64,000 bases of DNA from Escherichia coli (GTDB lineage: Bacteria; Pseudomonadota; Gammaproteobacteria; Enterobacterales; Enterobacteriaceae): NCBI RefSeq assembly GCF_030013205.1, contig NZ_CP122648.1; one strand, 5' to 3'. Made by a program: the position numbers and the translations under genes. Within the stretch, counting starts at the first letter, position 1. Every line of letters begins with the position of its first letter. The notes under the pieces are model-generated. The model saw nothing but the letters and a program-made list of their open reading frames with translations, was not told the DNA's origin and ran no database searches. Positions 7,289 through 32,145 of this stretch are shown piece after piece.

Positions 7289-8143
7289 TTAACCTGCAAT
7301 AGCCATTCCTACCGTCATGTGCAGGCCATAAAAGAGCACACGCCCGATCATCTCACCGCCAAGTATGAGGATTAGCCCCAGAATAAGTCCGGCAACGTGA
7401 GGTTCACGGCGACGAATGAGCGGACAAAGCCAGCATCCTAGACCTGTGCATAACAATACCACACGCCAGACCTGTAAGGAGGCGTAATCTGGTACCAGTG
7501 CGCTGGCTTGTTGTACGGATGAGTGAATAGACGCCAGAGACAAACCTTGCAGCACAATCACCCCGGCACAAGCGATCAGCGCCAGAACGCTAATGATGGC
7601 AAATGTTGTGGTATTAAATGTAACGCGGGCTGCCCGCAGAATTGTGGCAGCAAGTATTGGACCGCTCAACAATACTGTCAGGAAGAAAGCCAGCGTAGTG
7701 TAACCGTTATACCAGGTTGGCACTGTGTCGATTTGATACACGCAGGTCATCATCCAGACGAAAATGACGCCGAGCGCCATGCTGACAAGTAACCAGAGTT
7801 TCCCCAACGCTTGCGGCATTTTACCGATGACCGCCACCAGCCACCATAATCCGCCAACGGCAAAAAATATGGAACCGGCAGCAATCTCGTTACTCAGACC
7901 AGAAGCTCCGATTCGATTCAGCGAGTTAAACGCCCGCAGTGGGGATCCCAGGTGCATGACAGAGGCAATAAACCCGATGCCCATCAACAGCCAGAGGAAA
8001 AACATGCCACGAACAATGTGCTGACGGTCTGCGTCATTTTTGGCGGCGAACCAGCCAATTCCGCTAACAATCAGCGCGCCTACTACGCATTGACCCAATA
8101 CGGTAAAGATAACCAGTGGCCATTCATGCCATCCATTTCCCAT
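7289..8143 (-). CDS. ynfH: DMSO-reductase-type membrane anchor subunit YnfH (DmsC paralogue)
   Basis: ORF 7289..8383 but real start is the ATG at 8141-8143 (MGNGWHEWPLVIF...), 284 aa, 8 TM-like segments; 1 nt after ynfG stop region. Confidence 0.85.
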   Translation of the reverse strand: MGNGWHEWPLVIFTVLGQCVVGALIVSGIGWFAAKNDADRQHIVRGMFFLWLLMGIGFIASVMHLGSPLRAFNSLNRIGASGLSNEIAAGSIFFAVGGLWWLVAVIGKMPQALGKLWLLVSMALGVIFVWMMTCVYQIDTVPTWYNGYTTLAFFLTVLLSGPILAATILRAARVTFNTTTFAIISVLALIACAGVIVLQGLSLASIHSSVQQASALVPDYASLQVWRVVLLCTGLGCWLCPLIRRREPHVAGLILGLILILGGEMIGRVLFYGLHMTVGMAIAG

Positions 8144-8144
8144 T

Positions 8145-8762
8145 TTACACTTCCTCCGGATTAGCCAGATAACCAGTGGTATCGCCGGTTGGGCGGCTGT
8201 TGGCGTTAGGTTTGATAACGATATTGGGTTTTGTGAAATGCGCGCGCGGCAGTGGCGCGACGGCAGCCAGAGTGCCGTGCTTCTGGCGCAGCTCTTCAAT
8301 TGGACCGAACTCAAGTGCACGCAGCGGGCAGGATTCGACACATATGGGTTGTTTCCCCTCGGCGACGCGCGAATAACAACCATCGCACTTCGTCATGTGC
8401 CCTTTTTCAGCATTGTACTGTGGCGCGCCGTACGGACAAGCCATGTGGCAGTAGCGGCAGCCGATACAAACATCTTCATCAACCACCACAAAGCCATCTT
8501 CACGCTTATGCATTGCGCCGCTGGGGCAGACTTTTGTACATGCGGGGTCATCGCAATGGTTACAGGAGATGGAGAGATAATAAGCGAACACGTTCTGGTG
8601 CCAGACGCCATTATCTTCCTGCCAGTCGCCGCCAGCATATTCATAAATACGGCGGAAACTGACTTCCGGGCCAAGATCTTTAAAATCTTTGCACGCCAGT
8701 TCGCAGGTTTTACAGCCAGTACAGCGGCTGGAATCGATAAAAAATCCATATTGTGTGGTCAT
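8145..8762 (-). CDS. ynfG: 4Fe-4S ferredoxin-type electron-transfer subunit YnfG (DmsB paralogue)
   Basis: 205-aa ORF with four CxxCxxCxxxCP-type cysteine clusters. Confidence 0.9.
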   Translation of the reverse strand: MTTQYGFFIDSSRCTGCKTCELACKDFKDLGPEVSFRRIYEYAGGDWQEDNGVWHQNVFAYYLSISCNHCDDPACTKVCPSGAMHKREDGFVVVDEDVCIGCRYCHMACPYGAPQYNAEKGHMTKCDGCYSRVAEGKQPICVESCPLRALEFGPIEELRQKHGTLAAVAPLPRAHFTKPNIVIKPNANSRPTGDTTGYLANPEEV

Positions 8763-8772
8763 GGGCTACTCC

Positions 8773-11199
8773 TTAAACCTTTTCGATCTGGACAAGATTG
8801 CTGTGCGACGGGTTTCCCTTTGCCAGCGGTGAAGGGCGGTGAGAGGTCAGAATATTGATACTGCCGCCGTGATCGACCCGGTCACCAAACATATCCGCTT
8901 TAAGCCACGCACCTTGCCCGATGGCGGTAACGCCAGGCAGAATACGCGGAGTCACTTTTGCGGCAATCAGCATTTCTCCATTATTGTTAAATACCCGCAC
9001 GGTATCGCCATGACGGATACCGCGTGCCTGAGCATCAATAGGGTTGATCCACACCTCTTGTGGGCAGGCCTGCTGTAACACATCAATATTGCCGTAGCTG
9101 GAGTGGGTACGCGCTTTGTAGTGGAAGCCCGTTAGCTGCAGTGGATAGGTTTTCCGCAGGGGATCGTCCCAGCCATCAAAACCTGGGGTATACGCAGGAA
9201 GGGGATGAATAATTTCATCTTTTTTCAATTCCCAGGTATCCGCAATCGTCGCCAGTCGTTCAGAATAAATTTCGATTTTCCCCGAAGGTGTTTTCAACGG
9301 GTTTGCCTGTGGATCTTCACGGAATGCGCGGAAAGCGACGTAGTGTTCTTCCGGGCATTTTTTCTTAAAGATCCCGGTCGTTTTCATCTCCTCGTAGTCG
9401 GGCATCTCAGGGTTACGTTCCTTCGTTTTCGCATGGAGATATTTGATCCATTCGTGCTGACTGCGGCCTTCAGTAAAGGTTTGATAAACGTCTGGTCCTA
9501 AGCGTTTGGCGACTTCGCTCAGCATCCAGTAGATGGGTTTGCGTTCAAATTTTGCTGAGGTTGCGGGTTGGGCGAGGATCACATAGCCCATATTCCCGGC
9601 AGATTCATGAGAGATAAGGTCTTCTTGCTCTGTTGGCATCAGGTCGGGCAACAGGATATCGCAATACTTAGCCGAGGCAGTCATGAAGTGGTCAATGCCA
9701 ACAATCATCTCGCACTTGCTGTCATCCTGAAGCACCTCATGGGTGTGATTGATGTCGCCATGTTGATTGATCAATGTGTTACTGGCGTAGCACCATAAAA
9801 ACTTGATGGGGACATCCAGTTTTTCTTTTCCACGAACACCATCACGGGTCGCGGTCATTTCCGTACCGTGGTCGATGGCATCTGTCCATGTAAAGACGGA
9901 AATCTGCGTTTTAACAGGATTCTCGAGCATCGGGAACCATTCTACCCCCAGATCCCAGCTACCTTCGCGTACACCTGAGTTGCCGCCGTTTATGCCGACG
10001 TTACCGGTGAGAACGGAAAGCATGGCAATAGCGCGGGACGTTTGTTCGCCGTTGGAGTGTCGTTGTGGCCCCCAACCCTGACAAATATAAGCAGGTTTTG
10101 CTGAACCGATCTCTCGTGCCAACTGGATAATTTTTTCTGCCGGGATGCTGGTGATTTTTGCTGCCCATTCCGGCGTTTTAGCTATGCCGTCAGGCCCTTC
10201 GCCCAGAATATAGGCTTTATAATGCGCGTTACGTGGTGCGTTGGCGGGCAGCGTTTTTTCATCGTAACCAACACAATATTTGTCGAGAAATGGCTGATCG
10301 ACCATGTTTTCAGTAATCAGTACCCAGGCAATCGCACAGGCCAGTGCGCCATCGGTGCCTGGGCGAATTGGCAGCCATTCATCTTCACGCCCGGCAGCAG
10401 TGTCGTTATAACGTGGATCGATGACGATCATGCGTGCGTTTGAACGTTCTCGGGCTTGCTCGACGTAGTAAGTGACACCACCGCCGCTCATCCGGGTTTC
10501 TGCCGGGTTATTTCCGAACATAACGACCAGTTTCGTATTGGCTATATCATCCGGGCTGTTGCCATCATTGGCACCGAACATATAACTCATTGCGGCACTG
10601 ATTTGAGCGGTACTGTAGCTGCCATAGCGACTGAGAAAACCACCGCAAGAGTTCATCAGACGGTACGGGACGTTCGAGTTGGTGATGTTTCCGCCATCTA
10701 CGCCTGTTCCGTACAGGACATGTACAGCCTCATTGCCGTATTCTTTCAGGATCCGCCGAAGATTATCACTGATGGTATCCAGGGCTTCATCCCAACTTAT
10801 CCGTTCAAATTTACCTTCACCGCGCTTGCCGACGCGCTTCATGGGATATTTCAACCTATCAGGATGATTCATCCGTCGGCGGATAGAGCGCCCGCGTAAA
10901 CACGCTCGAACCTGATGATTACCGTAGACGTCGTCACCTGTCGTATCAGACTCCACCCAGTACACGGTGTCATCTTTCACATGCAAACGTAACAGACAGC
11001 GGCTCCCGCAGTTAACGGTGCAGGAACTCCAGACCGCTTTCTCTTCTACCGGTGCCTCTGCCGCTCGGACCATTTGGGAAAATGGCAGAGTGAAAGCACT
11101 GCTTGCCAGCGCGAGACTGCCAAGTGCGGAGGTTTTCATCAGACTTCTACGGCTGATTTCAGCCTTCATGAGCGCCTCTGTGGTATGGATTTTCATCAT
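8773..11199 (-). CDS. ynfF: molybdopterin oxidoreductase catalytic subunit YnfF (DmsA paralogue, Tat signal)
   Basis: ~807-aa ORF with twin-arginine signal (SRRSLMKTSALG) and N-terminal Cys cluster; tandem paralogue of ynfE. Confidence 0.9.
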   Translation of the reverse strand: MMKIHTTEALMKAEISRRSLMKTSALGSLALASSAFTLPFSQMVRAAEAPVEEKAVWSSCTVNCGSRCLLRLHVKDDTVYWVESDTTGDDVYGNHQVRACLRGRSIRRRMNHPDRLKYPMKRVGKRGEGKFERISWDEALDTISDNLRRILKEYGNEAVHVLYGTGVDGGNITNSNVPYRLMNSCGGFLSRYGSYSTAQISAAMSYMFGANDGNSPDDIANTKLVVMFGNNPAETRMSGGGVTYYVEQARERSNARMIVIDPRYNDTAAGREDEWLPIRPGTDGALACAIAWVLITENMVDQPFLDKYCVGYDEKTLPANAPRNAHYKAYILGEGPDGIAKTPEWAAKITSIPAEKIIQLAREIGSAKPAYICQGWGPQRHSNGEQTSRAIAMLSVLTGNVGINGGNSGVREGSWDLGVEWFPMLENPVKTQISVFTWTDAIDHGTEMTATRDGVRGKEKLDVPIKFLWCYASNTLINQHGDINHTHEVLQDDSKCEMIVGIDHFMTASAKYCDILLPDLMPTEQEDLISHESAGNMGYVILAQPATSAKFERKPIYWMLSEVAKRLGPDVYQTFTEGRSQHEWIKYLHAKTKERNPEMPDYEEMKTTGIFKKKCPEEHYVAFRAFREDPQANPLKTPSGKIEIYSERLATIADTWELKKDEIIHPLPAYTPGFDGWDDPLRKTYPLQLTGFHYKARTHSSYGNIDVLQQACPQEVWINPIDAQARGIRHGDTVRVFNNNGEMLIAAKVTPRILPGVTAIGQGAWLKADMFGDRVDHGGSINILTSHRPSPLAKGNPSHSNLVQIEKV

Positions 11200-19043: not shown

Positions 19044-20339
19044 TTAATTTTTCATTGCTTCGTTATGGGGCATGGTTGGGGCAAACTCGCTTAACTGTGT
19101 ATTTAACAAAGCTACCTGTGCATTATTGTTTTCAGACATCCATTTTCCGTATACCTGAAATACCATTTGCGCATCTGCATGGCCCATCTGGTTTGCTATA
19201 AATGCCGGGTTAGCACCAGCTGTCAGCGACCAGCAGGCATAAGTATGTCTCGACTGATATGATTTTCGATGGCGGAGTCCGGCACGTTTTATCGCTGCGT
19301 CCCACATCTGCCTTATTGAGTCAACGGTAAAATGGTCACCATAATTTTTTACTCTCGCTGACACTTCAGGTTGAAAAACAAAGGTGCATTTTTGTTTTTC
19401 TGTTCTGCCATACTCTCTGAGGTGAACATCAATGATATGCTCTTTGCTCAGTCTCGTTAATGTCATCTGACTCCGGAGAGCGTCGATTGCTGGCTTAATA
19501 AGATGAATGACCCGATTGGTTCCCGCCTGTGTTTTTGGTACCGTGAAACGGTCTTTTGCTAAATTTCTCCTGATCATCATTGTTCCATTTTTCAGATCTA
19601 TGTCCTCCCATCCAAGTGCACACAGCTCACCAGGGCGAACTCCAGTATAAACAGAAACACACCATAAATTTTTTGCTTGCTGATTTCTGCACGCATCGAT
19701 AAGACGGATAAATTCTTCCCGCGAAAGAGGATCCGGAATGGTTCTTGATTCCTTTAATGGCGAGATCCCCTTAAACGGATTATCTGCCAGGTAACCGTTA
19801 TCAACACCAAACTGGAACACGGCGTTAAGATTTGTCATGTAATTATTTACAGTTACAGCCGATCTCCCTGGTTGTGTAACAATATAGTTACTTTTGGGGA
19901 TCTGGTATCCAGTCAGTAACTCTTTACGAACCTCCAGTAATTTTTCTTTATTAATCGATGAGGCAAGATTTTTTTCACCGATTATGCTCAGGATATTTTT
20001 GATGACGGCACGGTATGTGTTGAGTGATGTTTTGGCGACTTCAGTTTCTTTCAGTGCCAGAAATTTTTCAGCCAGTTCTTTTATGGTTAAATCTTGTCGG
20101 GCCTCACCAAATTTTTCCAGATTGCGTGAGGAGGGAAACTGTTTTGCATAGTCGAAAACACCAGTTTTTATTGCGTAACAAACAGAGGAGCGTAGTTCAC
20201 CTGCAACGCGCCTGTTTTTTGCTGTGTCAGGAACCCCCAGATTTTCCCTGACTCTTACGTCTTTATAAACAAACCAGATACGTAATTTCCCTCCATGGTT
20301 TTCCACGCCTGTCGGATATTTCATTTCAACTTCTCTCAT
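19044..20339 (-). CDS. intQ: tyrosine-type phage integrase (apparently intact)
   Basis: 431-aa ORF adjacent to att core, with C-terminal catalytic R...HxxR...Y-type region (RHRKSYQSRHTYACW); internal ATG at 20324 (MKYPTGV) may be the true start. Confidence 0.85.
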   Translation of the reverse strand: MREVEMKYPTGVENHGGKLRIWFVYKDVRVRENLGVPDTAKNRRVAGELRSSVCYAIKTGVFDYAKQFPSSRNLEKFGEARQDLTIKELAEKFLALKETEVAKTSLNTYRAVIKNILSIIGEKNLASSINKEKLLEVRKELLTGYQIPKSNYIVTQPGRSAVTVNNYMTNLNAVFQFGVDNGYLADNPFKGISPLKESRTIPDPLSREEFIRLIDACRNQQAKNLWCVSVYTGVRPGELCALGWEDIDLKNGTMMIRRNLAKDRFTVPKTQAGTNRVIHLIKPAIDALRSQMTLTRLSKEHIIDVHLREYGRTEKQKCTFVFQPEVSARVKNYGDHFTVDSIRQMWDAAIKRAGLRHRKSYQSRHTYACWSLTAGANPAFIANQMGHADAQMVFQVYGKWMSENNNAQVALLNTQLSEFAPTMPHNEAMKN

Positions 20340-20358
20340 TAGTTAGTGTGGCTTTTAG

Positions 20359-20610
20359 TCAAGTAAGATGACGTCTTGGTCTCGCTGATGCCTGGCGCTC
20401 AATCCAGCGATCAATTTCTTCCAGGTTGTAAAAGCATGGACTGTTATCCCATGGCATACCGTCATGAGCGACATGCTTATATTCCCTTCCTTCCATAAAC
20501 GATTTTTCCCGGGCCTTTTTTAACGTACCTTTTTTTATTCCTTTCAGCGCAATTAACTGCTCTTCGGATACCCATTTGCCGGGAGAGACAATCATGATTA
20601 CTTCGCTCAT
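20359..20610 (-). CDS. excisionase-like small DNA-binding protein
   Basis: 83-aa ORF immediately upstream of int in the same orientation; basic N-terminal region. Confidence 0.7.
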   Translation of the reverse strand: MSEVIMIVSPGKWVSEEQLIALKGIKKGTLKKAREKSFMEGREYKHVAHDGMPWDNSPCFYNLEEIDRWIERQASARPRRHLT

Positions 20611-20682
20611 CGATTTCTTTATCTCTTACATCAGACGAGCGCCGGTTGCAGAATACCAGTCACAACCGGCGACAGTTGAACA

Positions 20683-23154
20683 TTAAGAATCAGCCTGACT
20701 CGGGATCAGTTTTTGCCAGATAACTGAAACGTATTTTGCCTGGTAACGGGCGTCATCAAGTGCATTATGGCGCTCACCTTCGAATGGAATAGCCGTTCTG
20801 GCATCGAAGTCTATGGCTTTCCCCAGCTCAACGATTGTGCGTACATCGCGATCGTTGTAGTAACGCCACGGGCAGGGGATCCCCTGCCGTTCGTATGAAC
20901 GGCGCAAAATCGTGTTGTCGAAGTTGGCTCCATTTCCCCAAACCTGAACAAAAAATTCACCGGAGTTTTCGTCGATAAATTCTCGCAATTGTAACAGTGC
21001 ATCATCTAACGGGATTTCATCGGTCATAATGGCAGATTGCGCTTCGCGTGATTGCTTAAGCCACCATTTAATGGTGTCCCGATCAATGACTCCGCCAGCA
21101 GTTTCCAGATCGATAGTCTTACTAAATTCCGGTCCCATATCTCCGGTTTGCGGATCGAAAAATATTGCACCTATTGAGATGATCGGGGCATCAGGATTTT
21201 TTCCCATGGTTTCAAGGTCGATCATTAGATGGTCACACGTCCTGCTGGTGGATGTGATTTCGTGATGACCGTTCACCTTAATTGGGTGATCTGCCGTCTC
21301 GCCAGTTTCATTATCGCTATTGTGATGCTGATTGCCGCCAGTGTTCTCCTTGTGTGGATGTTCAGCGCCTTCCATTTCCTCCGGATCATCTTCCTGAACT
21401 TCAACCTGATACTCTTCATCGAATGTTTCTTGGTATGTTGCGTCGCCCATCACCGCGCCACAATCAGGGCAGTTGCCGCCGCCGGTCTGACCGCAGGCGG
21501 TGCAGACTTTTTCCACTTCCTGTTGCGCTACTGGTTCAGGCTGTTTCGTTTCTGGCTCGTTTTGTAACGCATTTGGACTGTTTTGTTCCGCTTTTTGGTA
21601 GTTCCGTTCCGATTCATGCTGGTTCTGGTTCACAGAATCGCGGGTCTGGAGCCCCTTAACCCATTTCGGATCATTCGGGTCACTAATCCCTTCAACAAAT
21701 TCACCACGTGATGCAGCAAGCAACTTATCGGCGTCAGGCTGGCTGATATTGGCTGCCTGCATAATTTTGTTTACTTCGTCAGCGGTAACTTTTATCGGCT
21801 CTGGTTGTTCTGAATCTTCAGCGGTATCTACATTTTGCGGTAAGCCCGTGTATGTGCCATTTTTTCGGGCAAAATATTCTTCTTTTGTGATTTCAGTGGC
21901 GCCAGCAGCCAGTGCCTTATCCAGACCAGAGAGTTTGTTTGCGCGACCGTATTTTTCTCCGTCCTTATCTGCGAAGAGGAAATAGAACGGCCCCTCACGC
22001 TCTACAGATGGTTCAGCTTCCGGCGCGGTTTCATTTTTTGGGATATCAGATACCTCAGTTTCCACTGCATCAGTTTGTGTTTCTGATGACTGGAGAACAT
22101 CAACAGTGCCCAGGTCTGTTTCTTCATTCTCAAACACGCCCTTTGTCGTCAGGTATTCGCAGATATATTTGTTCAGTGCTACGGGATCTTTGTGAATGTC
22201 GATCGGACGCTCACGGACAAGGCCAAAAATAGTTTGGCGGTCGTAGCGAAGGGCATCAGGCTGTTTGCGCATTGATGCCGAGATACGCTTCCAGTCTTCG
22301 CGGTCGTTGTCGATAACTTCTTTTTTTGCCCAGCGATGGATGCTGCCGTCAATGTTTCCGGCATCCACATCACTAGGCCAGAGAGCGTAGGCCAGTTCGT
22401 CATCCAGTGTTTTCCATGTCTGCTTGTATTCGCGATGAATGGCAGCAATGACCGGGCTGATTTTTCCTGTTGAATTTTCAGTGTACTGTTGATTGGCTCT
22501 GGCGCGGGCGAGATCAACAACAGACGTGTATTTTCCGGTTTCCTTGCGTTCACCTTCGCGACGTTTTTTCCAGATGCGCATCTCTGCCTGAATTTCGGGC
22601 CATTTAGCACCAGGAATACATTTATGCTTAACCCACCCAATGGCGTGCAACTTAAGCTCCGGATACATGGCGTTAACTTCTGGCATTTTCATCAACGCTT
22701 CAACGATATGTCCGTCGAATGTTGCCATGTCTTCCTGCAACAATTCCTGTGCGCTAATAACCATATCAACGGTGATGTTTTCACATGTGTCGAACTTAAC
22801 CATGACAGCGTTCTGTACTTCAGGGGCCAGCTTGTCAAAAGTGACGTTCATCGGATCGGATTCAGTCTCAACCGGGACAAAAGAAGCAGACTCCTCATCC
22901 CAGCGGTTTTCCTGCATATATTCAGCATCCCATGAATCGAGGGCAGGGCGGGGTATGCCAGGTTTATCCTCGCAGACAATAAATTTATAAGCGCAGTCCT
23001 GAGCAGCCGGATAATGTTCCAGGAATTGCCAGTGAAATTTTGCTCGAGCACGGCGTTCGTCGCCAGCTTCAATGGCTGTGGCTACAGCCACAGCGCCTTC
23101 TTCCCTTGTTGCCAGTTCGTCAGGAATAGCGGCGCAAATAAAGACTTTACTCAT
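20683..23154 (-). CDS. ydfE: large prophage exonuclease: acidic low-complexity N-terminal region, CxxC...CxxC zinc ribbon, C-terminal DEDDh 3'-5' exonuclease domain
   Basis: ORF 20683..23190 has a TTG at its top; likely ATG at 23154 (MSKVFICAAIPDE) with GAGG upstream. Motifs MIDLETMG (Exo I), VWGNGANFDNTIL (Exo II), ERHNALDDARYQAKY (Exo III, H-x4-D); CTACGQTGGGNCPDCGAV zinc ribbon. Symbol by synteny with the K-12 fragment next to ydfD, not by sequence match. Confidence 0.75.
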   Translation of the reverse strand: MSKVFICAAIPDELATREEGAVAVATAIEAGDERRARAKFHWQFLEHYPAAQDCAYKFIVCEDKPGIPRPALDSWDAEYMQENRWDEESASFVPVETESDPMNVTFDKLAPEVQNAVMVKFDTCENITVDMVISAQELLQEDMATFDGHIVEALMKMPEVNAMYPELKLHAIGWVKHKCIPGAKWPEIQAEMRIWKKRREGERKETGKYTSVVDLARARANQQYTENSTGKISPVIAAIHREYKQTWKTLDDELAYALWPSDVDAGNIDGSIHRWAKKEVIDNDREDWKRISASMRKQPDALRYDRQTIFGLVRERPIDIHKDPVALNKYICEYLTTKGVFENEETDLGTVDVLQSSETQTDAVETEVSDIPKNETAPEAEPSVEREGPFYFLFADKDGEKYGRANKLSGLDKALAAGATEITKEEYFARKNGTYTGLPQNVDTAEDSEQPEPIKVTADEVNKIMQAANISQPDADKLLAASRGEFVEGISDPNDPKWVKGLQTRDSVNQNQHESERNYQKAEQNSPNALQNEPETKQPEPVAQQEVEKVCTACGQTGGGNCPDCGAVMGDATYQETFDEEYQVEVQEDDPEEMEGAEHPHKENTGGNQHHNSDNETGETADHPIKVNGHHEITSTSRTCDHLMIDLETMGKNPDAPIISIGAIFFDPQTGDMGPEFSKTIDLETAGGVIDRDTIKWWLKQSREAQSAIMTDEIPLDDALLQLREFIDENSGEFFVQVWGNGANFDNTILRRSYERQGIPCPWRYYNDRDVRTIVELGKAIDFDARTAIPFEGERHNALDDARYQAKYVSVIWQKLIPSQADS

Positions 23155-23246
23155 TTGTTTTAACCTCATGACAGATTTAAGGATGAACAAATCCCTGCCA
23201 TTGCTGGCATATAAGAATGAAACCGGATATTTATTACGGAACTGTT

Positions 23247-23438
23247 TTAAAGACCTGCCGGGATTTCGATATTATCCTGGTGAATAACTTTATCGACCGG
23301 GTAACAGTTACCGGGAATTTTCTGTTCGGTTGCTGCAGTCATACACTCCTGCATTGTCCAGTGAACACTGACTGCAATATCAACTGGCTCTCCGGAAACA
23401 AGAAAAACTGTCAGAACAAGCACAAATGCTGAATTCAT
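23247..23438 (-). CDS. ydfD: small lysis protein YdfD
   Basis: Internal start MNSAFVLVLTVFLVSGEPVDIAVSVHWTMQECM (63 aa) within ORF 23247..23492; 4-nt overlap with dicB. Confidence 0.8.
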   Translation of the reverse strand: MNSAFVLVLTVFLVSGEPVDIAVSVHWTMQECMTAATEQKIPGNCYPVDKVIHQDNIEIPAGL

Positions 23439-23623
23439 TGTGCACATCCTTTTGGCATCAGACGTAAACGAGCCAGCATTGAAACAATGCATATTTTATT
23501 TAATAGCTCCCGTTCTTGTTTTCTCTTGTTAATGGCATCTTCAGTAAATACTGGGTTACTGATAGTGACACCAATTTCAAAACAACCTTCAGACGTATTA
23601 ACGTTTGGTAATAACGTTTTCAT
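23435..23623 (-). CDS. dicB: cell-division inhibitor DicB
   Basis: 62-aa internal ORF MKTLLPNVNTSEGCFEIGVTISNPVFTEDAINKRKQERELLNKICIVSMLARLRLMPKGCAQ inside ORF 23435..23728. Confidence 0.85.
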   Translation of the reverse strand: MKTLLPNVNTSEGCFEIGVTISNPVFTEDAINKRKQERELLNKICIVSMLARLRLMPKGCAQ

Positions 23624-23791
23624 TATCGCGTCCTCAACAATGAATTTTGTGATGCAGTGCCTGGTGCCTCCAGGTGACGTTAACCAGTTAACAATTAACG
23701 CCGGATACAGAGAATCCACCCATAACACTGTTTTTGGTTTTAACTGTTCCGCGTGCGCTCAGCCGCATTCACCACATCACAAAATTCACTT

Positions 23792-23849
23792 TAAAAAGGG
23801 CAGCAGAGCAGTCACGGAGTAAAACTGATACCGCCAAACGTCACCAGAA
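23792..23849 (-). ncRNA. dicF: DicF small RNA (ftsZ-targeting)
   Basis: Reverse complement reads TTTCTGGTGACGTTTGGCGGTATCAGTTTTACTCCGTGACTGCTCTGCTGCCCTTTTT, between ydfC and dicB as in K-12. Confidence 0.75.
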
Positions 23850-24190
23850 AATTGATAACAGAGGGCGTTGCAGCGGGGTTGTCACTTAAGCGTATGGTCA
23901 ACCTGACAACCCGGTGTCCTCAACGGGGAAGGAATAACCCCGCCATACTTACCGCCGCGCCATTTCGCGGGTTGCCACAACCGGAAGCGCACGGTCGACG
24001 AAAATTTAACGACAGGCTATCTATGAACCAGCTACCTCGCCGTGCGCTTTCGCGTTATGGTCTGACTTTTCAGGGAAATATCCTTTCAGTAAACTGTCAG
24101 TTCCGGATGCGCACCCGTGTCCGGCGCACGCACTCCACCTCACCCGTGGAGAACTCCTTAATTACTAACCTTAGCTTTGTTGATTAGCTA

Positions 24191-24409
24191 CTAACGCGGG
24201 TATGTAATCATTCTGGCAATGCTTAATGCCGCTGCTTTTTCCAGATTGGTGATATCCTGCTCCAGAGCGGACAGATTTTCAGCCTGCTTAGCCCTGGCTT
24301 CATTAGCCCATTTCAGATCCTGCGCTGCATTAATTTTCTGGCGCATCCACTCATAAAGTTCATCATCGGTATAGTCTGGCGCGATGATGACGGGTTCTCG
24401 TTTCTGCAT
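24191..24409 (-). CDS. ydfC: Qin prophage protein YdfC
   Basis: 72-aa ORF MQKREPVIIAPDYTDDELYEWMRQ...; position between ydfB and dicF. Confidence 0.75.
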   Translation of the reverse strand: MQKREPVIIAPDYTDDELYEWMRQKINAAQDLKWANEARAKQAENLSALEQDITNLEKAAALSIARMITYPR

Positions 24410-24438
24410 ACTGATTCCTCGCGGTGCTGTTTCGCTTA

Positions 24439-24567
24439 TCAGCCGTTAGATTTTGCCGAACTGGAAAGCGCCTGTTTAAACTCACTGAAGCTGAGAGCTT
24501 CTTCGCCTTCGGCAAGGCCTTCGAAGTATTCTTCGTAAGCCTTTTCCATGATTGTGTCGAAATCCAT
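24439..24567 (-). CDS. ydfB: Qin prophage protein YdfB (42 aa)
   Basis: Manual translation of the minus strand: MDFDTIMEKAYEEYFEGLAEGEEALSFSEFKQALSSSAKSNG; below the ORF-track size cutoff; coordinates +/-1 nt. Confidence 0.7.
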   Translation of the reverse strand: MDFDTIMEKAYEEYFEGLAEGEEALSFSEFKQALSSSAKSNG

Positions 24568-24568
24568 A

Positions 24569-24724
24569 TCACTCACCTGAGTTTCTTTCCAGCCAGCGAC
24601 GGGCACCATTTTCGGTTTTAAACGTTTTGCTTTTGGTATACGTCATTGCGGTGAACGTGCCGTCCTGGTTTGGAAACACGCCGTACACCAGAGATTCGTT
24701 GTTGCCAAGATCGATAGTATCCAT
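24569..24724 (-). CDS. ydfA: Qin prophage protein YdfA (51 aa)
   Basis: Internal start MDTIDLGNNESLVYGVFPNQDGTFTAMTYTKSKTFKTENGARRWLERNSGE within ORF 24569..24802. Confidence 0.75.
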   Translation of the reverse strand: MDTIDLGNNESLVYGVFPNQDGTFTAMTYTKSKTFKTENGARRWLERNSGE

Positions 24725-24890
24725 GCTGACCTCATTTCCCCTTAACGCTGGGGTAGCGGAACTGTTTGCTGAGAACACCGTGCGGTGTGTTGATGCAAAC
24801 AAGATTAGCCATGACTAACATATCGGTCAAGTGATTTTGTATGCTATAGCTAACATAATTGATGTGGTAAAAGATAACTCATTGATGATG

Positions 24891-25298
24891 TTATCTTTTA
24901 TTTGTCCGCTGACGGGCTTTTAGTAATTCTTCAAAGAGTTTATTGAAGTTTTTTACTCGAGCTCGCATTTCGGCGAGCTGGGTATCCTGTTCTGATTCTG
25001 GCAGTGCATTAAACAGCTCAAGGAGCTCTAGTTCTTTGGGGGATAAGGCAACTGGCTTCTCAACAGGTGGTGTTGGTTGCTTGTCTTCATCGCCAAATAG
25101 AATCCATGTTGGTGAGCATTGCAATACTTTGCTGAGGGCAAAAAGGTTCTTCCCTGTAGGTTCACTATCACCCCGTTCCCATTGTGATACAGACACATGG
25201 GAGATTTTCAGGGCTTTAGCAAGAGAGCTTTGGGTGTGTTTGAGGTTTTTCCGACGATACCTGATGCGTTCGCCGATAGTTAAATTTTTTGTTTCCAT
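24891..25298 (-). CDS. dicA: prophage repressor DicA (HTH_XRE, P22 C2-like)
   Basis: 135-aa ORF; HTH LKHTQSSLAKALKISHVSVSQWERG; divergent from dicC. Confidence 0.9.
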   Translation of the reverse strand: METKNLTIGERIRYRRKNLKHTQSSLAKALKISHVSVSQWERGDSEPTGKNLFALSKVLQCSPTWILFGDEDKQPTPPVEKPVALSPKELELLELFNALPESEQDTQLAEMRARVKNFNKLFEELLKARQRTNKR

Positions 25299-25332
25299 AG
25301 TTAGCTAATGCTAAATCGTATTGACTATGTTT

Positions 25333-25367
25333 TTGTTAACATCTATCTTGTTAGTTATGACTAACAA
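25333..25367. promoter_or_regulatory. putative operator in dicA-dicC divergent promoter region
   Basis: Palindrome ttgttagt-tatg-actaacaa (25348..25367) plus a related half-site ttgttaac at 25333. Confidence 0.4.
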
Positions 25368-25381
25368 TAAAGGTGTTTTAA

Positions 25382-25612
25382 ATGCTTAAAACTGACGCTC
25401 TTTTGTATTTCGGTTCAAAAACAAAACTTGCACAAGCAGCAGGTATTCGTTTGGCTTCGCTTTATAGCTGGAAAGGGGATTTAGTTCCCGAAGGTCGCGC
25501 GATGCGTCTACAGGAGGCATCTGGCGGGGAGCTTCAGTATGATCCCAAAGTTTATGATGAATATCGTAAGACGAAGCGGGCGGGGCGGTTGAACAATGAA
25601 AATCACTCCTGA
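25382..25612 (+). CDS. dicC: Cro-like regulator DicC
   Basis: 76-aa ORF MLKTDALLYFGSKTKLAQAAGIRLASLYSWKG... Confidence 0.9.
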   Translation: MLKTDALLYFGSKTKLAQAAGIRLASLYSWKGDLVPEGRAMRLQEASGGELQYDPKVYDEYRKTKRAGRLNNENHS

Positions 25613-25919
25613 ACAGGCTCGTGAGGCTCTGGATGCCTGGATATGTCGACCAGGAATGACACAGGAGCAGGCGACGATATTAATCACTGAAGCATTCTGG
25701 GCTTTGAAAGAGCGCCCGAACATCGATGTTCAGCGTGTCACATATGAAGGTGGCGCGATTGATCAGCGAGCGCTTGGCGTTATCTGGTCATCACCTGACG
25801 GAGAAATACGTCGCTACGACAGTCGCCTAAACATAATCTGTCGCGAGTGCCGGAAGAGCGAAGTTATGCAGCGCATACTGGCTTTCTATCAGGGTAATTT
25901 TCAGGACGTGGCGCAGTGA
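25596..25919 (+). CDS. hypothetical prophage early-region protein
   Basis: 107-aa ATG-initiated ORF overlapping the dicC stop by 17 nt; its TGA overlaps the GTG start of the next gene (GTGAGTG). Confidence 0.45.
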   Translation: MKITPEQAREALDAWICRPGMTQEQATILITEAFWALKERPNIDVQRVTYEGGAIDQRALGVIWSSPDGEIRRYDSRLNIICRECRKSEVMQRILAFYQGNFQDVAQ

Positions 25920-26362
25920 GTGCACCGGCAACCATTCTTGATATGTGCTGTGGCAGCCGCATGTTCTGGTTCGATAAGTCTGACGAACGGGCGATATTCA
26001 GCGATATCAGAAAAGAAGGATACACATTACGCAATGGGAGACGCTTGATTATCAGCCCTGACATTATCGCAGATTTTCGTGCATTATCATTTGCAGACGC
26101 ATCTTTTTCGATGGTTGTATTAGACCCTCCGCATCTTGAGAGTGTTGGTGATAACGCCTGGATGGGAAAGAAATATGGACGGCTGAATAAAGATGCCTGG
26201 CGTGATGATTCGCGACAGAGATTTAAAGAAGCCTTTCGGGGGTTGAGGCCGCACGGCGTTCTGATTTTTTAATGGAATGAAACGCAAATACCGGTAAGCC
26301 AGATTCTGGCACTGACAGACAGAAAACCTGTTATCTGTCAACGAACAGGGAAAAAACGATAA
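25916..26362 (+). pseudogene. small SAM-dependent methyltransferase-like gene interrupted by an in-frame TAA
   Basis: LDMCCGS (motif I-like) then VVLDPPH (motif IV-like, DPPY/NPPY class) and LRPHGVLIF; TAA at 26270-26272; same frame stays open 29 more codons (WNETQIPVSQILALTDRKPVICQRTGKKR) with no start codon of its own. Confidence 0.5.
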
Positions 26363-26694
26363 AACCCACTGGATTATTTTTATGAAAGAGGCATCCAGTG
26401 AGTAGATTCGTAAGGCTACAGATACGTATATCTGAATAATTAAATTCAGTTCTGTAAATAAAATTTAATCCTTAACCGGATGGATTTCTGCACCCTCAGA
26501 ACATCAGGAGGCCGCCCGAAAGGGCGGTAGTGAAATGCGAATGTTCAAAATTATTATTGAAACGGGAATAGCTGGTGGAGATTTTGAGGATGTATTCGAA
26601 GTGGACGATGACGCAACACCTGAGGAAATTCATGACGGAGCATAAGAAATTTTCTTTAACTACTGCAATTACTCATACCACGAAATAAAAGACG

Positions 26695-26886
26695 ATGAGG
26701 AAGAACAAAGTGGCTGATTTTTGTTCAGCTAAATATAACATCAGTTTTGAAGAGCGGGATGAACTATTAATGGACTATGGTGAGTTACGCGGTGGAAGTG
26801 CTGCTGATGTCGAATCCTAGCGTGATGACTATGAAGCGGGAAAAACTCCGGTCGAAGCATATTGTGATGAGTGGGGCGATGAATGA
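26695..26886 (+). pseudogene. short acidic ORF with single in-frame TAG
   Basis: MRKNKVADFCSAKYNISFEERDELLMDYGELRGGSAADVES-TAG(26818)-RDDYEAGKTPVEAYCDEWGDE-TGA; downstream segment has no start codon. Confidence 0.35.
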
Positions 26887-27170
26887 GCGAGATTAATTAT
26901 CAGGAAGGGCATGAAACGGCGGGGCAAGCAAAACCAGTGGCATGGCGATATCGCTACGTGAAAAAAGGCGTTACGGACTTTCAGGGGAAGTAGTGGTCTG
27001 GTGACTGGAAATATGTACCGAAAAAAGAGGATTGTAACGACAGGCCGAACTATCAAATTCAGGCCTTATTCACTGCCTCACCAGTCCCAGTTACATCAGA
27101 AGAACTGGTTAAAGCTGTGCACTTTTATGAACAACTAAAACGCGAAAATCCACCAACATCCGGCAACTAG
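26883..27170 (+). pseudogene. short ORF with single in-frame TAG
   Basis: MSEINYQEGHETAGQAKPVAWRYRYVKKGVTDFQGK-TAG(26991)-WSGDWKYVPKKEDCNDRPNYQIQALFTASPVPVTSEELVKAVHFYEQLKRENPPTSGN-TAG; downstream segment lacks a start. Confidence 0.35.
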
Positions 27171-27424
27171 ATTAATGGATTAACTATGTCGGTTAAACGA
27201 CCAGCCAACTGAAAAAGCGGAAACCTGATTACAGGTTGCCAGATAAGGCAATGAGCTACCTGGCGCGGAACGGACTGATAAGTATGGGGAATGTTTTACG
27301 ATGAACCTTTAGACTAAAGAGTTTGTAACGCTATGTAAGTGATTTTTTCTGGTTTAGATATTTATATGTCCGGCCAAATTGAGGTGTGTTTAAATGTAAT
27401 TGCACATTGATTGTAGGAGGAATA

Positions 27425-27604
27425 ATGAAAAACGCATTGCAGTTTTTGTTTGTTGCGTTCTGGTTGTTCGCATCATGTATGCCCATCATCTTCACAGCAA
27501 GGTATATGGAAAAAGTTGATGTTTTGATATTAATATTTGGATATATAAATGCCCTTTTTTTAGGGGTGTTCATGGCGGTCATGTGCATTGAATACTGGCG
27601 GTAA
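27425..27604 (+). CDS. small two-TM membrane protein (59 aa), function unknown
   Basis: ATG at 27425 preceded by AGGAGG 7 nt upstream; MKNALQFLFVAFWLFASCMPIIFTARYMEKVDVLILIFGYINALFLGVFMAVMCIEYWR; very AT-rich codons. Confidence 0.5.
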   Translation: MKNALQFLFVAFWLFASCMPIIFTARYMEKVDVLILIFGYINALFLGVFMAVMCIEYWR

Positions 27605-27938
27605 ATACAGCGAACTCCATTGGTTTAGTTGGATATTTACTGTGCTGGACAAAAACGGTTTGCGGGGAAATCTTAGTTAAGTAGAATGACTGCGGGTGCT
27701 TGAGGCTATCTGCCTCGGGCATGGACACCAACGGCAGATAGAGAAAAGCCCCAGTTAACATTACGCGTCCTGCAAGACGCTTAACATTAATCTGAGGCCA
27801 ATTTCATGCTAGACACATGTAGGTTAGCCTCTTACGTGCCGAAAGGCACGGAGAAGCAGGCTATTGTTAACACCAAGTTGTAATGTCCCCTTTGAACCAT
27901 TCTAAAATGTCCCCAGACAATTCTCTGGGGGATTTTTC

Positions 27939-29252
27939 ATGATCAAAGAGACTGTTACGATGAGTCATAAGGAACTCCACCGACTTCAGATTATTCAGGA
28001 ACAAGCTGCGGCACGCATTGGCATTTCTATTCGGCAGGTTAAACGTCTGGTGCAACGGTATAGAAATGAAGGGCCTTCTGGTCTGGTTTCCCACCGACGT
28101 GGAAAGCGTCCTAATAATTCCTTTTCTACTGAATTCAGAGCAACAGTAATTTCACTCCTCAAAGGCCGTTACGCTGATTTTGGACCTACGTTTGCGTGCG
28201 AAAAATTGCGCGAGATACACGGTTTATCTTTATCCGTTGAAACTCTCAGAAAGTGGATGATAGAAGAGGGGTTATGGCGTGAACGCCGTCGTAAAATTGC
28301 CCGTATATATCAACGCCGCATGCGACGACCATCTTACGGTGAACTGATCCAGATTGATGGCTCACCTCATGACTGGTTTGAAAATCGAGGCCCCAGATGT
28401 ACACTGATCGTTTTCATTGATGATGCCACCAGTGCGTTGATGGCGTTGCGTTTTGTGCCTGCTGAAACAACCCGGGCTTACATGGAAACCCTCCGGGGTT
28501 ACCTTAATGATCATGGCGTACCGCTCGCTCTCTACTCTGATAGACACAGTATATTCAGGGTAAATAACCCAGAGCGGGAAGGTGAGCTGACCCAGTTCAC
28601 TCGTGCGATAAAGACACTGGGCATCGAGCCAATCCATGCCAACAGCCCGCAGGCAAAAGGGCGGGTAGAGCGCGCCAATCAGACACTACAGGACAGGCTG
28701 GTCAAAGAAATGCGGCTTCAGAATATCAGTGATATTGAAACAGCAAATGCATGGTTGCCGACCTTTATTGAAGCCTATAACAACCGGTTCGCTACGTCGC
28801 CTCGTACTACTGATAATGCTCATCTTGATGTGCACCATTCTGAAGAGGAACTGGGTTATATCTTCAGCCTACAGGCGAAGCGCGTTCTGTCTAAAAATCT
28901 CACTTTCCAGTACAAAAGCAGTGCGTTTCAGGTACGCAGTGAGGGCCGGGGATATCGACTTAGGCATTCGGTTGTTACTGTATGCGAGAACTTTGACGGT
29001 GAAATTAACGTTCTGTATGACGGGAAAGCGCTGGGCTGGGAAAAGTATGTTGATGGCCCGGAGCCTATACCACTGGATGATGAAAAGAGTGTCCATGAAC
29101 GAGTGGATAATGCCCGTATTGATTTACGCTCAAAATACTATGTTAAACCTAAAGCTGACCATCCCTGGCTTACGCGCCGAACGCAAAGTCATCAGCAAGT
29201 TAAGCCCCCGAAGTTACCTAAAAAGAAGCCTGATCCCGATAAAAAAGATTGA
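27939..29252 (+). CDS. DDE transposase with N-terminal HTH and integrase-core (rve) domain, IS481/ISNCY-like
   Basis: 437-aa ORF; HTH IGISIRQVKRLVQRY; catalytic-looking residues in LIQIDGSPHD, LALYSDRHSIF and KGRVERANQTLQD; basic Lys/Pro-rich C-terminus. Confidence 0.8.
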   Translation: MIKETVTMSHKELHRLQIIQEQAAARIGISIRQVKRLVQRYRNEGPSGLVSHRRGKRPNNSFSTEFRATVISLLKGRYADFGPTFACEKLREIHGLSLSVETLRKWMIEEGLWRERRRKIARIYQRRMRRPSYGELIQIDGSPHDWFENRGPRCTLIVFIDDATSALMALRFVPAETTRAYMETLRGYLNDHGVPLALYSDRHSIFRVNNPEREGELTQFTRAIKTLGIEPIHANSPQAKGRVERANQTLQDRLVKEMRLQNISDIETANAWLPTFIEAYNNRFATSPRTTDNAHLDVHHSEEELGYIFSLQAKRVLSKNLTFQYKSSAFQVRSEGRGYRLRHSVVTVCENFDGEINVLYDGKALGWEKYVDGPEPIPLDDEKSVHERVDNARIDLRSKYYVKPKADHPWLTRRTQSHQQVKPPKLPKKKPDPDKKD

Positions 29253-29585
29253 AACCAAGATCGATTCGGTTGAGTGCATATCCATTCATAGGGTAGATTC
29301 TTAAGTCGCGTTTCTGGTGTTCATTTTCGGGTGGTTTGTTACTTGTTTTACCGGGGATATGCCAGAAACGCGCTGAGTCAGTCTGGGCGGTGCGCGTAAT
29401 GAGGCGTTATGGTAAATAGCCTATGCTAATGTCCGCTAAGAGCAAGAAGCGGAAGTTGGCAGTTTTGTGGACTGTCCCCACAAAAGTGACTACAGAAATA
29501 GTTGCAATTCATAATTGATCATGGGTTGTCAGTTAAACTCGTGGCGATTTAAATAGACTAATTGGGAGTGCGTCCATTACTTATA

Positions 29586-29635
29586 TCTTGTAATGTTAAC
29601 TATCAGAAATTCTTGTAATGTTAACTATCAGAAAT
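29586..29635. repeat. perfect 25-bp tandem direct repeat x2 (tcttgtaatgttaactatcagaaat)
   Basis: Read directly; each unit contains a GTTAAC palindrome; lies just downstream of the flxA terminator. Confidence 0.85.
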
Positions 29636-29676
29636 GATACAAAGATAATATGTCTTTAAAGAAAAGGCTGATGGCG

Positions 29677-29699
29677 AAAAGTGGCCCGATGAGGGCCAC
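29677..29699 (-). terminator. rho-independent terminator of flxA
   Basis: Minus-strand hairpin GUGGCCC-ucauc-GGGCCAC followed by UUUU, 15 nt after the flxA stop. Confidence 0.5.
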
Positions 29700-29713
29700 A
29701 ATACGGCTGTCAC

Positions 29714-30046
29714 TTAGACGTAAATATCAATGGTGCCAGCGGTATTTGTATCGTCTTTTTTCTCTTCTTTTTTATCAGGCTGAACTGTCGCGTCTTCATT
29801 CTTTTTCTCTGCCTGCTGCCTTAACAACTGCTCCAGTTGAGCCCAGAGGCTTTCAATTTGCTTCTGTACCAATGCAGCCATTTCTTTTTTCTGCTGTGTC
29901 GTCATCCCCTCTTCCGATGAGATTTTCCCAAGCTTTTCAGTCAGCACCTGAATTTGTCTTGTGATTTTGGCTATTTCTGATGTTCCTTCCGGGGCGGAGT
30001 TGTTTGAAATAACGGTTGAGGTATTTCCCTGAATTGTGACAGACAT
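29714..30046 (-). CDS. flxA: FlxA (FliA-regulated protein, coiled-coil, Lys/Glu-rich C-terminus)
   Basis: 110-aa ORF MSVTIQGNTSTVISNNSAPEGTSEIAKITRQIQVLTEKLG... Confidence 0.9.
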   Translation of the reverse strand: MSVTIQGNTSTVISNNSAPEGTSEIAKITRQIQVLTEKLGKISSEEGMTTQQKKEMAALVQKQIESLWAQLEQLLRQQAEKKNEDATVQPDKKEEKKDDTNTAGTIDIYV

Positions 30047-30069
30047 AGATTTCTCCTTTTAAAAAAGCA

Positions 30070-30096
30070 CTATCGGCATGCACAAAAAAATCTTTA
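30070..30096 (-). promoter_or_regulatory. sigma-28 (FliA) class promoter for flxA
   Basis: Minus strand reads TAAAGATT-N11-GCCGATAG, matching consensus TAAAGTTT-N11-GCCGATAA, about 25-50 nt upstream of the flxA ATG. Confidence 0.6.
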
Positions 30097-30248
30097 ATCG
30101 TATTTCTTGTGTCATTAATTGTTTGATGTTCAGATTGTTTTCCTCGCGGGCTGGCGCGCCTCAGAAAGTAAAGCTTGTTGACAGGGGTAAACGTTCGGCA
30201 ATAATTTTCTGCCGCATGCGGGTGTTGCATAAAACGTGTTACGTTCCT

Positions 30249-30554
30249 TTATCGACAGGTCAGGTCACCGCTCACCCGCCGACGAGAAAGCAACACTGAC
30301 ATGCTAAAGCAAAAAATAGATGAATAAGTTGAGTTGTGCATATGTAGCCTGACCGTCACAAAGTATATGGTGTCTGTACCAGTAAGATGATGGCCGGACT
30401 CTTTAAAAACGAGCTGACCTGCACAATACAGGATGGACTTAGCAATGGCTGCTCCTGGCACAAAGCGGACAGTGATCACCGTTCTTACGACTACTTTCTG
30501 ACTTCCTTCGTGACTTGCCCTAAGCATGTTGTAGTGCGATACTTGTAATGACAT
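30249..30554 (-). CDS. ydfV: hypothetical prophage protein (ydfV position)
   Basis: 101-aa ORF between flxA and relB, divergent from relB as in K-12; symbol by position and length only. Confidence 0.45.
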   Translation of the reverse strand: MSLQVSHYNMLRASHEGSQKVVVRTVITVRFVPGAAIAKSILYCAGQLVFKESGHHLTGTDTIYFVTVRLHMHNSTYSSIFCFSMSVLLSRRRVSGDLTCR

Positions 30555-30578
30555 TTGTAATTACAAGAGGTGTAAGAC

Positions 30579-30818
30579 ATGGGTAGCATTAACCTGCGTA
30601 TTGACGATGAACTTAAAGCGCGTTCTTACGCCGCGCTTGAAAAAATGGGTGTAACTCCTTCTGAAGCGCTTCGTCTCATGCTCGAGTATATCGCTGACAA
30701 TGAACGCTTGCCGTTCAAACAGACACTCCTGAGTGATGAAGATGCTGAACTTGTGGAGATAGTGAAAGAACGGCTTCGTAATCCTAAGCCAGTACGTGTG
30801 ACGCTGGATGAACTCTGA
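30579..30818 (+). CDS. relB: RelB antitoxin (RHH)
   Basis: 79-aa ORF MGSINLRIDDELKARSYAALEKMGVTPSEALRLMLEYIADNERLPF... Confidence 0.95.
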   Translation: MGSINLRIDDELKARSYAALEKMGVTPSEALRLMLEYIADNERLPFKQTLLSDEDAELVEIVKERLRNPKPVRVTLDEL

Positions 30819-31105
30819 TGGCGTATTTTCTGGATTTTGACGAGCGGGCACTAAAGGAATGGCGAAAGCTGGGCTCGACGGTACGTGAACAGTTGAAAAA
30901 GAAGCTGGTTGAAGTACTTGAGTCACCCCGGATTGAAGCAAACAAGCTCCGTGGTATGCCTGATTGTTACAAGATTAAGCTCCGGTCTTCAGGCTATCGC
31001 CTTGTATACCAGGTTATAGACGAGAAAGTTGTCGTTTTCGTGATTTCTGTTGGGAAAAGAGAACGCTCGGAAGTATATAGCGAGGCGGTCAAACGCATTC
31101 TCTGA
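30818..31105 (+). CDS. relE: RelE mRNA interferase toxin
   Basis: 95-aa ORF MAYFLDFDERALKEWRKLGSTVREQLKKKLVEVLESPRIEANKLRG...; start overlaps relB stop (ATGA). Confidence 0.95.
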   Translation: MAYFLDFDERALKEWRKLGSTVREQLKKKLVEVLESPRIEANKLRGMPDCYKIKLRSSGYRLVYQVIDEKVVVFVISVGKRERSEVYSEAVKRIL

Positions 31106-31176
31106 ACCAAAGCATGACATCTCTGTTTCGCACCGAAGGTGACACTTCTGCTTTGCGTTGACAGGAGAAGCAGGCT

Positions 31177-31332
31177 ATGAAGCAGCAAAAGGCGATGTTA
31201 ATCGCCCTGATCGTCATCTGTTTAACCGTCATAGTGACGGCACTGGTAACGAGGAAAGACCTCTGCGAGGTACGAATCCGAACCGGCCAGACGGAGGTCG
31301 CTGTCTTCACAGCTTACGAACCTGAGGAGTAA
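31177..31332 (+). CDS. hokD: Hok-family membrane toxin HokD (RelF)
   Basis: Manual translation: MKQQKAMLIALIVICLTVIVTALVTRKDLCEVRIRTGQTEVAVFTAYEPEE (51 aa); below the ORF-track cutoff. Confidence 0.85.
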   Translation: MKQQKAMLIALIVICLTVIVTALVTRKDLCEVRIRTGQTEVAVFTAYEPEE

Positions 31333-31401
31333 GAGACCCGGCGGGGGAGAAATCCCTCGCCACCTCTGATGTGGCAGGCATCCTCAACGCACCCGCACTT
31401 A

Positions 31402-31430
31402 ACCCGCTTCGGCGGGTTTTTGTTTTTATT
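31402..31430 (+). terminator. rho-independent terminator after relBE-hokD
   Basis: cccgc-ttcg-gcggg hairpin followed by tttttgtttttatttt. Confidence 0.6.
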
Positions 31431-31548
31431 TTCAACGCGTTTGAAGTTCTGGACGGTGCCGGAATAGAATCAAAAATACTTAAGTAGCGCGCAGGGATAA
31501 GAGGGATGGTCCCTTAAAGGGGAGAGCTAATTATCCGGAAGGATTCTG

Positions 31549-31800
31549 ATGATGAACATCGAAGAACTGCGTAAAATTTTTTGTGAAGATGGCCTCTATG
31601 CTGTGTGCGTTGAAAATGGAAATCTTGTTAGTCATTACCGCATTATGTGTTTGCGAAAGAATGGGGCTGCGTTAATTAATTTTGTGGATGCTCGGGTCAC
31701 GGACGGATTTATCTTGCGCGAAGGTGAGTTTGTCACTTCATTACAGGCATTGAAAGAGATCGGAATAAAAGCTGGCTTTTCTGCTTTTTCAGGAGAATAA
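31549..31800 (+). CDS. rem: Qin prophage protein Rem
   Basis: 83-aa ORF MMNIEELRKIFCEDGLYAVCVENGNLVSHYRIMCLRKNGAALINFVDARV... Confidence 0.8.
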   Translation: MMNIEELRKIFCEDGLYAVCVENGNLVSHYRIMCLRKNGAALINFVDARVTDGFILREGEFVTSLQALKEIGIKAGFSAFSGE

Positions 31801-31866
31801 ACTCATCTACAATCTTGCGCGGGGCTGAACTCCCGCTGAGTAACACCGTGCCACCGGAGAAAACCG

Positions 31867-32145
31867 ATGGCACGCAACGCAAAATATTACAATTCTGATA
31901 ATTCGCCCGTTCTTGCCTGCACGCACGGGCGGTATTCTCACGCATTCAAGTCTGAATGGTTCCAGCACCCTCCATGCACTGCAGAACAGGCCGAATGGCT
32001 GATTCATTCTTACCGCAGGCGCGGGTTCGAGGTTAAGAAAGCTCTCAGTCTCGACTATCGGCACTGGATAATCTCTGTCAGGCTGCCTTATTCCGAACGC
32101 CCACCACGTGCGTCCCGCACTTTCCAGCAACGGATCTGGAGGTAA
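31867..32145 (+). CDS. hypothetical small prophage protein
   Basis: 92-aa ORF overlapping the ydfU start by 38 nt; no recognisable motif; may be spurious. Confidence 0.3.
   Translation: MARNAKYYNSDNSPVLACTHGRYSHAFKSEWFQHPPCTAEQAEWLIHSYRRRGFEVKKALSLDYRHWIISVRLPYSERPPRASRTFQQRIWR

Follow-up and report, generated by a model that had tools for sequence, protein, structure and literature searches.

Ordinary neutral pseudogene decay of dispensable early-operon genes in a defective prophage very probably accounts for the run of in-frame stop codons downstream of dicC. Within the window (the whole 64-kb stretch of E. coli DNA that was analysed), the decayed block carries five nonsense codons within 1.4 kb (two TAA and three TAG), two frameshifting indels, one 90-bp in-frame deletion, one start-codon change and one 1.6-kb deletion. 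Intact homologous genes run past the stop positions, so the stops arose by nonsense mutation and do not mark where the genes naturally end.

The early-right block and its lesions

The block lies in a Qin-like defective lambdoid prophage, located between rspB and ydfJ on this chromosome segment. Its markers are dicA/dicC/dicB/DicF, relBE, hokD, cspB/F/I, and a truncated terminase and tail fibre. Positions 25300-27400 of the window are 100% identical to strain ETEC1748 (NZ_CP122719.1), in which PGAP annotates the other prophage genes as intact or deletion-truncated. The decayed genes belong to the rightward early operon, immediately past dicA (- strand) and dicC (+ strand). This block (25596-27304) represents the accessory early-right region 3' of dicC. 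Active relatives have genes for four proteins there: a small DNA methyltransferase, a DUF7167 protein, an acidic protein of 58 aa, and one of 171 aa whose function is unknown. Similarity to K-12 records is confined to window 25300-25782 (dicC, ydfX), and the methyltransferase/DUF7167/58-aa/phrog_660 part of the block is unmatched there. The genes concerned are listed below.

25382..25612, + strand: dicC (cro-like), first gene of the rightward early operon, as annotated by PGAP at the 100%-identical ETEC1748 locus
25596..25919, + strand: chimeric 107-codon ORF, with 62 ydaT/cII-like N-terminal codons joined in frame to 46 C-terminal codons of DUF977 (LygF)
25916..26405, + strand: phage DNA methyltransferase pseudogene (class I SAM-dependent, DPPH motif), 162 codons when intact
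26535..26717, + strand: DUF7167 family pseudogene (phrog_1997, E=1e-28), 60 codons when intact, labelled "internal stop" by PGAP
26710..26886, + strand: pseudogene of a 58-codon acidic protein (phrog_519), with intact 58-aa homologues (WP_000753058.1 and others)
26883..27304, + strand: pseudogene of a protein of unknown function (phrog_660), 171 codons when intact, labelled "frameshifted; internal stop" by PGAP

Three-frame translation of the + strand reproduced exactly the stop positions and tail lengths given by the sequence-only reading. TAA at 26270 is followed by 29 in-frame codons, TAA at 26643 by 23, TAG at 26818 by 21, and TAG at 26991 by 58, up to TAG at 27168. We estimate the chance that four random tails of these lengths are all open, at (61/64)^n per tail, as about 0.002. 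The impression that these tails look coding was also correct: the post-stop segments are true remnants that align residue for residue with intact homologues. The alignment proposed as a check of the stops revealed sense codons at these positions, namely AAA (26270), AAA (26643), TGG (26818) and ATG, CTG or CCG (26991), in the homologous loci L002, L003, L007-L010 and L013. Intact homologues do not end at these stops, which disposes of the alternative that these are short genes ending there naturally.

The description of the pattern as nonsense-only and frame-preserving did not hold. An inserted G, deletions of 4 bp, 90 bp and 1,607 bp, and an ATG to GTG start-codon change are also present. Frameshifts thus occur in the block, and the premise that their lack makes the pattern unusual is false.

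The chimeric ORF at the 5' end of the block originated from the 1,607-bp deletion, with its junction at 25780-25782 in a TTA microhomology. When the region was aligned to PhiR42_1 (L015), a more complete Qin-like prophage, positions 7761-9367 of the latter proved to be absent from the window. Lost in the deletion were the 3' portion of ydaT, replication gene O and the greater part of the DUF977 gene. The predicted fusion protein matches CII-like PHROGs with residues 1-49 and Ren-like/DUF977 PHROGs with residues 48-106, and PGAP labels the region as two partial pseudogenes. The K-12 ydfX locus matches the window no further than the fusion junction (window 25782).

We used the intact 162-aa gene of O145:H28 RM13514 (L010, 1203-1691; WP_000145667.1) and the homologue of M7638 (L003, 1503-1976) as references for the methyltransferase. 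DNA alignment with intact homologues revealed an AAA to TAA change at 26270-26272 and one extra G in the G-run at 26348-26350. Because of this +1 G frameshift, the 29 in-frame codons past the TAA end at TAA 26360. The original stop, TAG 26403-26405, lies in the shifted frame, as does the true C-terminus (…GKNDKTHWIIFMKEASSE). With the stop replaced by Lys and the extra G removed, the repaired protein matches phrog_954 (DNA methyltransferase) with E=2e-78 over residues 5-161. This full-length match was obtained from the reconstruction only; the encoded product ends at residue 118, and the 118-aa fragment retains motifs I and IV. Neither the repaired methyltransferase nor the 171-aa homologue of the last gene had a significant Pfam match, and the five proteins submitted to NCBIfam gave none either. 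The informative assignments are those from PHROGs and the PGAP names.

PGAP calls the methyltransferase locus "frameshifted; internal stop" in AL.H8, NCCP 15734 and isolate 12. Its treatment of the truncated gene (25916-26272) is inconsistent: the gene is an ordinary 118-aa CDS (WP_126750418.1, WP_001310834.1) in L001, L005 and L019, and a "frameshifted; internal stop" pseudogene in L012, L017 and L018.

The DUF7167 gene carries an AAA to TAA change at 26643-26645, upstream of its natural stop TGA 26715-26717. Intact 60-aa homologues have AAA at this position in five of five cases (L002, L007, L008, L009 and L013). The 36-aa fragment is labelled as a normal protein (WP_001224658.1) by PGAP in one genome. 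The start of the 58-codon gene and the stop of the DUF7167 gene overlap (as ATGGCTGA where both are intact), and the natural stop of the 58-codon gene is TGA 26884-26886. Its lesions are an ATG to GTG change of the start codon at 26710 and a TGG to TAG change at 26818-26820. The sequence-only reading had started this acidic ORF at ATG 26695; that ATG is a derived substitution and not the ancestral start, which is at 26710 (ATG in homologues, GTG here).

A strong hairpin with a GAAA tetraloop (GCCGCCC-GAAA-GGGCGGT) was identified at 26505-26537, where it separates the DUF7167 start codon (ATG) from an AGGAGG motif resembling a Shine-Dalgarno sequence. The predicted fold of the surrounding region (26490-26550) has an energy of -20 kcal/mol and z=-2.8. 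The hairpin may draw the Shine-Dalgarno motif near the DUF7167 start codon or stabilise the mRNA. No covariation support was found for it: a G to A change breaks the stem in L009, and the change in L007 is compatible with wobble pairing.

To define the lesions of the last gene, we aligned it with its intact 171-aa counterparts in L007, L009 and L013. The first stop, TAG 26991-26993, falls at a variable codon that is ATG, CTG or CCG in homologues. A 90-bp in-frame deletion at 27154/27155 lies between AATCCACC direct repeats. It is followed by a CAG to TAG change at 27168-27170, a frameshifting 4-bp deletion (TGGT) at 27201/27202, and the natural stop TGA 27302-27304. The earlier description of one stop per gene, with the last gene ending at TAG 27168, therefore needs correction, as 27168 is a fifth nonsense codon.

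An Rfam scan of window positions 20000-32000 at the gathering threshold returned DicF (23798-23849, - strand) and a sok-type RNA (27694-27865) alone. Both are outside the decayed block, and no recoding signal or structured RNA was found inside it.

Just past the block, positions 27386-27604 (+ strand) hold an ORF of 59-72 codons for a very hydrophobic small predicted protein (MKNALQFLFVAFWLFASCMPIIF…). The ORF is unannotated by PGAP in the carrier genomes inspected, phage records annotate an ORF on the opposite strand, and its DNA is 96.5% conserved with B18271. The hokD locus farther downstream is split (window 27647-27864 and 31163-31373), with the leader about 3.3 kb from the hokD coding sequence (31177-31332). 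The leader, which includes the sok match at 27694-27865, is 89-97% identical to the region just 5' of hokD in L013 and L002 (B18271). The insert comprises an ISNCY-family transposase gene (27939-29252), ydfW, flxA, ydfV and relBE; relatives that lack this insert have a contiguous hokD leader and coding sequence.

Distribution of the lesions and the test of neutrality

We compared the block with copies from 10 further E. coli genomes of RefSeq (ATCC 8739 among them), the GenBank phage PhiR42_1, and 28 IMG/VR contigs retrieved by a 21-mer spanning TAG 26818. Each of the five stops is identical in every copy that covers the site (32-39 copies per stop). Among the 5,426 complete E. coli genomes in RefSeq, 374 (~7%) contain 80% or more of 25916-27310, and the block is matched at 99% identity or more by 424 records. 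The stops are found in a clade with at least 98.8% identity and, for the last gene, also in B18271, whereas more distant homologues have sense codons.

The lesions are nested in their distribution. B18271 (L002) shares all the lesions of the last gene and has intact DUF7167 and 58-aa genes, which are on a diverged (~89%) upstream segment. PhiR42_1 has all five stops yet keeps ydaT, O and DUF977, and most other carriers keep DUF977. Because B18271 and PhiR42_1 carry subsets of the lesions, we conclude that these arose stepwise and were shuffled by recombination, a history in keeping with decay. PhiR42_1 (PV340562.1) is a 48.7-kb Qin-like prophage of ECOR13 with an IS insertion, deposited in GenBank as a "complete genome". 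The record probably represents a prophage prediction rather than a demonstrably viable phage; a literature search on PhiR42_1 for inducibility found no publication.

Stops are not more frequent in this block than chance would provide. For 26535-27152, with intact homologues as outgroups, we applied a codon-based mutation spectrum in which transitions were weighted twofold. Thirty-four substitutions are specific to the lineage of the window. With 5.2% of random substitutions creating a stop, 1.76 stops are expected. Two were scored (P(>=2)=0.53), with the two-step change at 26991 scored as two non-synonymous substitutions. Counting 26991 as a stop gives three observed, with P(>=3) ~0.26 by a binomial hand calculation. 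An excess of nonsense mutations over chance was accordingly rejected (2-3 observed vs 1.76 expected).

Decay has continued within the clade. Lesions newer than the clade include a CGA to TGA change at 26213 and indels at 26347, 26779, 26960 and 26967 (the last in 8 copies), and strain 1303 has an additional 5' deletion in the block. Singletons in the clade comprise 12 non-synonymous changes and one stop vs 3 synonymous changes, close to the neutral ratio of ~3.2.

Variable sites in the stop-bearing clade are synonymous-rich past the stops (6 synonymous vs 2 non-synonymous), whereas the pre-stop segments have 7 vs 19, a contrast that on its face may point to residual constraint. However, five of the six post-stop synonymous sites divide whole copy groups (8 to 16 sequences each), so they are few and non-independent, and they may represent older polymorphism or recombination with, or import from, intact alleles. 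The post-stop singletons, three only, are two non-synonymous changes and one synonymous. On the lineage branch, a hand tally gave non-synonymous to synonymous ratios of 6:4 post-stop and 12:8 pre-stop, the same ratio. The synonymous-rich signal is the only hint toward read-through. We provisionally treated it as noise and did not take it as evidence of read-through, because the sites are few and group-dividing and the singletons are neutral-like.

Neutral decay and its alternatives

Inactivation of these genes could itself have been selected during domestication of the prophage. Nonsense mutations would then be favoured since a leaky methyltransferase or small acidic proteins harm the host, and the loss would be adaptive. 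The M7638 homologue of the methyltransferase fits this explanation, as it was knocked out independently by a different TGG to TAG change, which turns codon 95 into a stop, whereas the RM13514 copy is intact (162 aa). O157:H7 records match the window at the same identity as M7638 and have the same PGAP product name. On sequence comparison, this suggests that the methyltransferase gene family may have been inactivated recurrently. The presence of the stop-bearing allele in ~7% of complete E. coli genomes also favours selected loss. However, the number of stops is at the neutral expectation, and the same genes have collected lesions of every type, more than selection for inactivation would require once a first hit had occurred. 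Intact copies of all four genes are, moreover, common in other E. coli prophages. We therefore consider selected inactivation unlikely, and the loss of toxic genes is not needed to explain the data.

In functional low-level read-through, by near-cognate or suppressor tRNAs, the stops would attenuate expression and not abolish it. Such attenuation has been put forward for numerous bacterial genes that contain internal stops, on the basis of post-stop purifying selection (Belinky et al. 2021, PMC7918605). The genes of that study resemble those of the block in having single in-frame nonsense codons in otherwise open frames, with homologous coding sequence downstream. Here, the frames are open for 21-58 codons past the stops, and the post-stop sites that divide the copy groups are mostly synonymous (6 vs 2). 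Unlike those genes, however, the block has neutral-like recent mutations, frameshifts, and stops and indels that are still accruing. The stops are not conserved, as divergent homologues carry sense codons. In two of the four genes a frameshift would have to be corrected as well, and full translation of the last gene would require read-through of two stops plus a -4 shift. Suppressor-dependent expression, which the sequence-only reading had raised, is further opposed by the tRNA content and the stop types: ARAGORN identified no tRNA or tmRNA gene within the 64-kb window, and the mix of TAA and TAG would require an ochre suppressor. The singletons that arose in the stop-bearing clade, mostly non-synonymous, argue against it as well. 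Phages with suppressor tRNAs or reassigned stops likewise have in-frame TAG or TAA inside phage-derived genes. The block differs from them in having no suppressor tRNA in the window, two stop types, and stops confined to one decayed block, and its close phage relatives have sense codons at the stop positions. Taken together, we regard functional read-through as highly improbable.

A sequencing or assembly artefact in a single genome, also among the earlier suggestions, has practically no chance of being the cause. All five stops recur in 10 RefSeq genomes that come from different laboratories, in 28 IMG/VR contigs and in one GenBank phage record, identical in all 32-39 independent copies, and no evidence in support of an artefact was found among the copies compared. 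The remaining suggestion of the sequence-only reading, recent inactivation, agrees with the sense codons at every stop position in homologues and with the further disabling lesions. The cryptic prophages Qin, Rac and DLP12 are elements of the same type with the same mix of lesions (nonsense mutations, frameshifts, deletions and IS insertion), and nothing essential differs here.

Probable neutral decay of accessory early genes in a Qin-like prophage

Under neutral decay, the accessory early genes of this prophage lineage would no longer be under selection. In the lysogen, DicA presumably silences the operon, and the element would have no further need of lytic growth. Nothing then maintains the genes, and therefore disabling mutations of every kind accumulate. 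The open post-stop frames would belong to recently inactivated genes, in which too few later mutations have occurred to close them. We infer that the truncated products are without function and that transcription is silent.

There is a slim chance that the stop-bearing ORFs are expressed weakly by near-cognate read-through, or that N-terminal fragments (the 118-aa methyltransferase core, the 36-aa peptides) are functional. If so, a retained or new function would explain why the allele is common in E. coli, and the synonymous-rich post-stop variation would reflect real constraint.

PGAP/RefSeq already labels these loci "internal stop" or "frameshifted; internal stop". The significance of neutral decay in this block is mainly one of annotation hygiene: young pseudogenes look like this, with successive in-frame stops and open tails, and comparison with homologues exposes the frameshifts and deletions that a reading of the sequence by itself misses. 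The nested distribution of the lesions could also mark the descent and recombination of Qin-like prophages.
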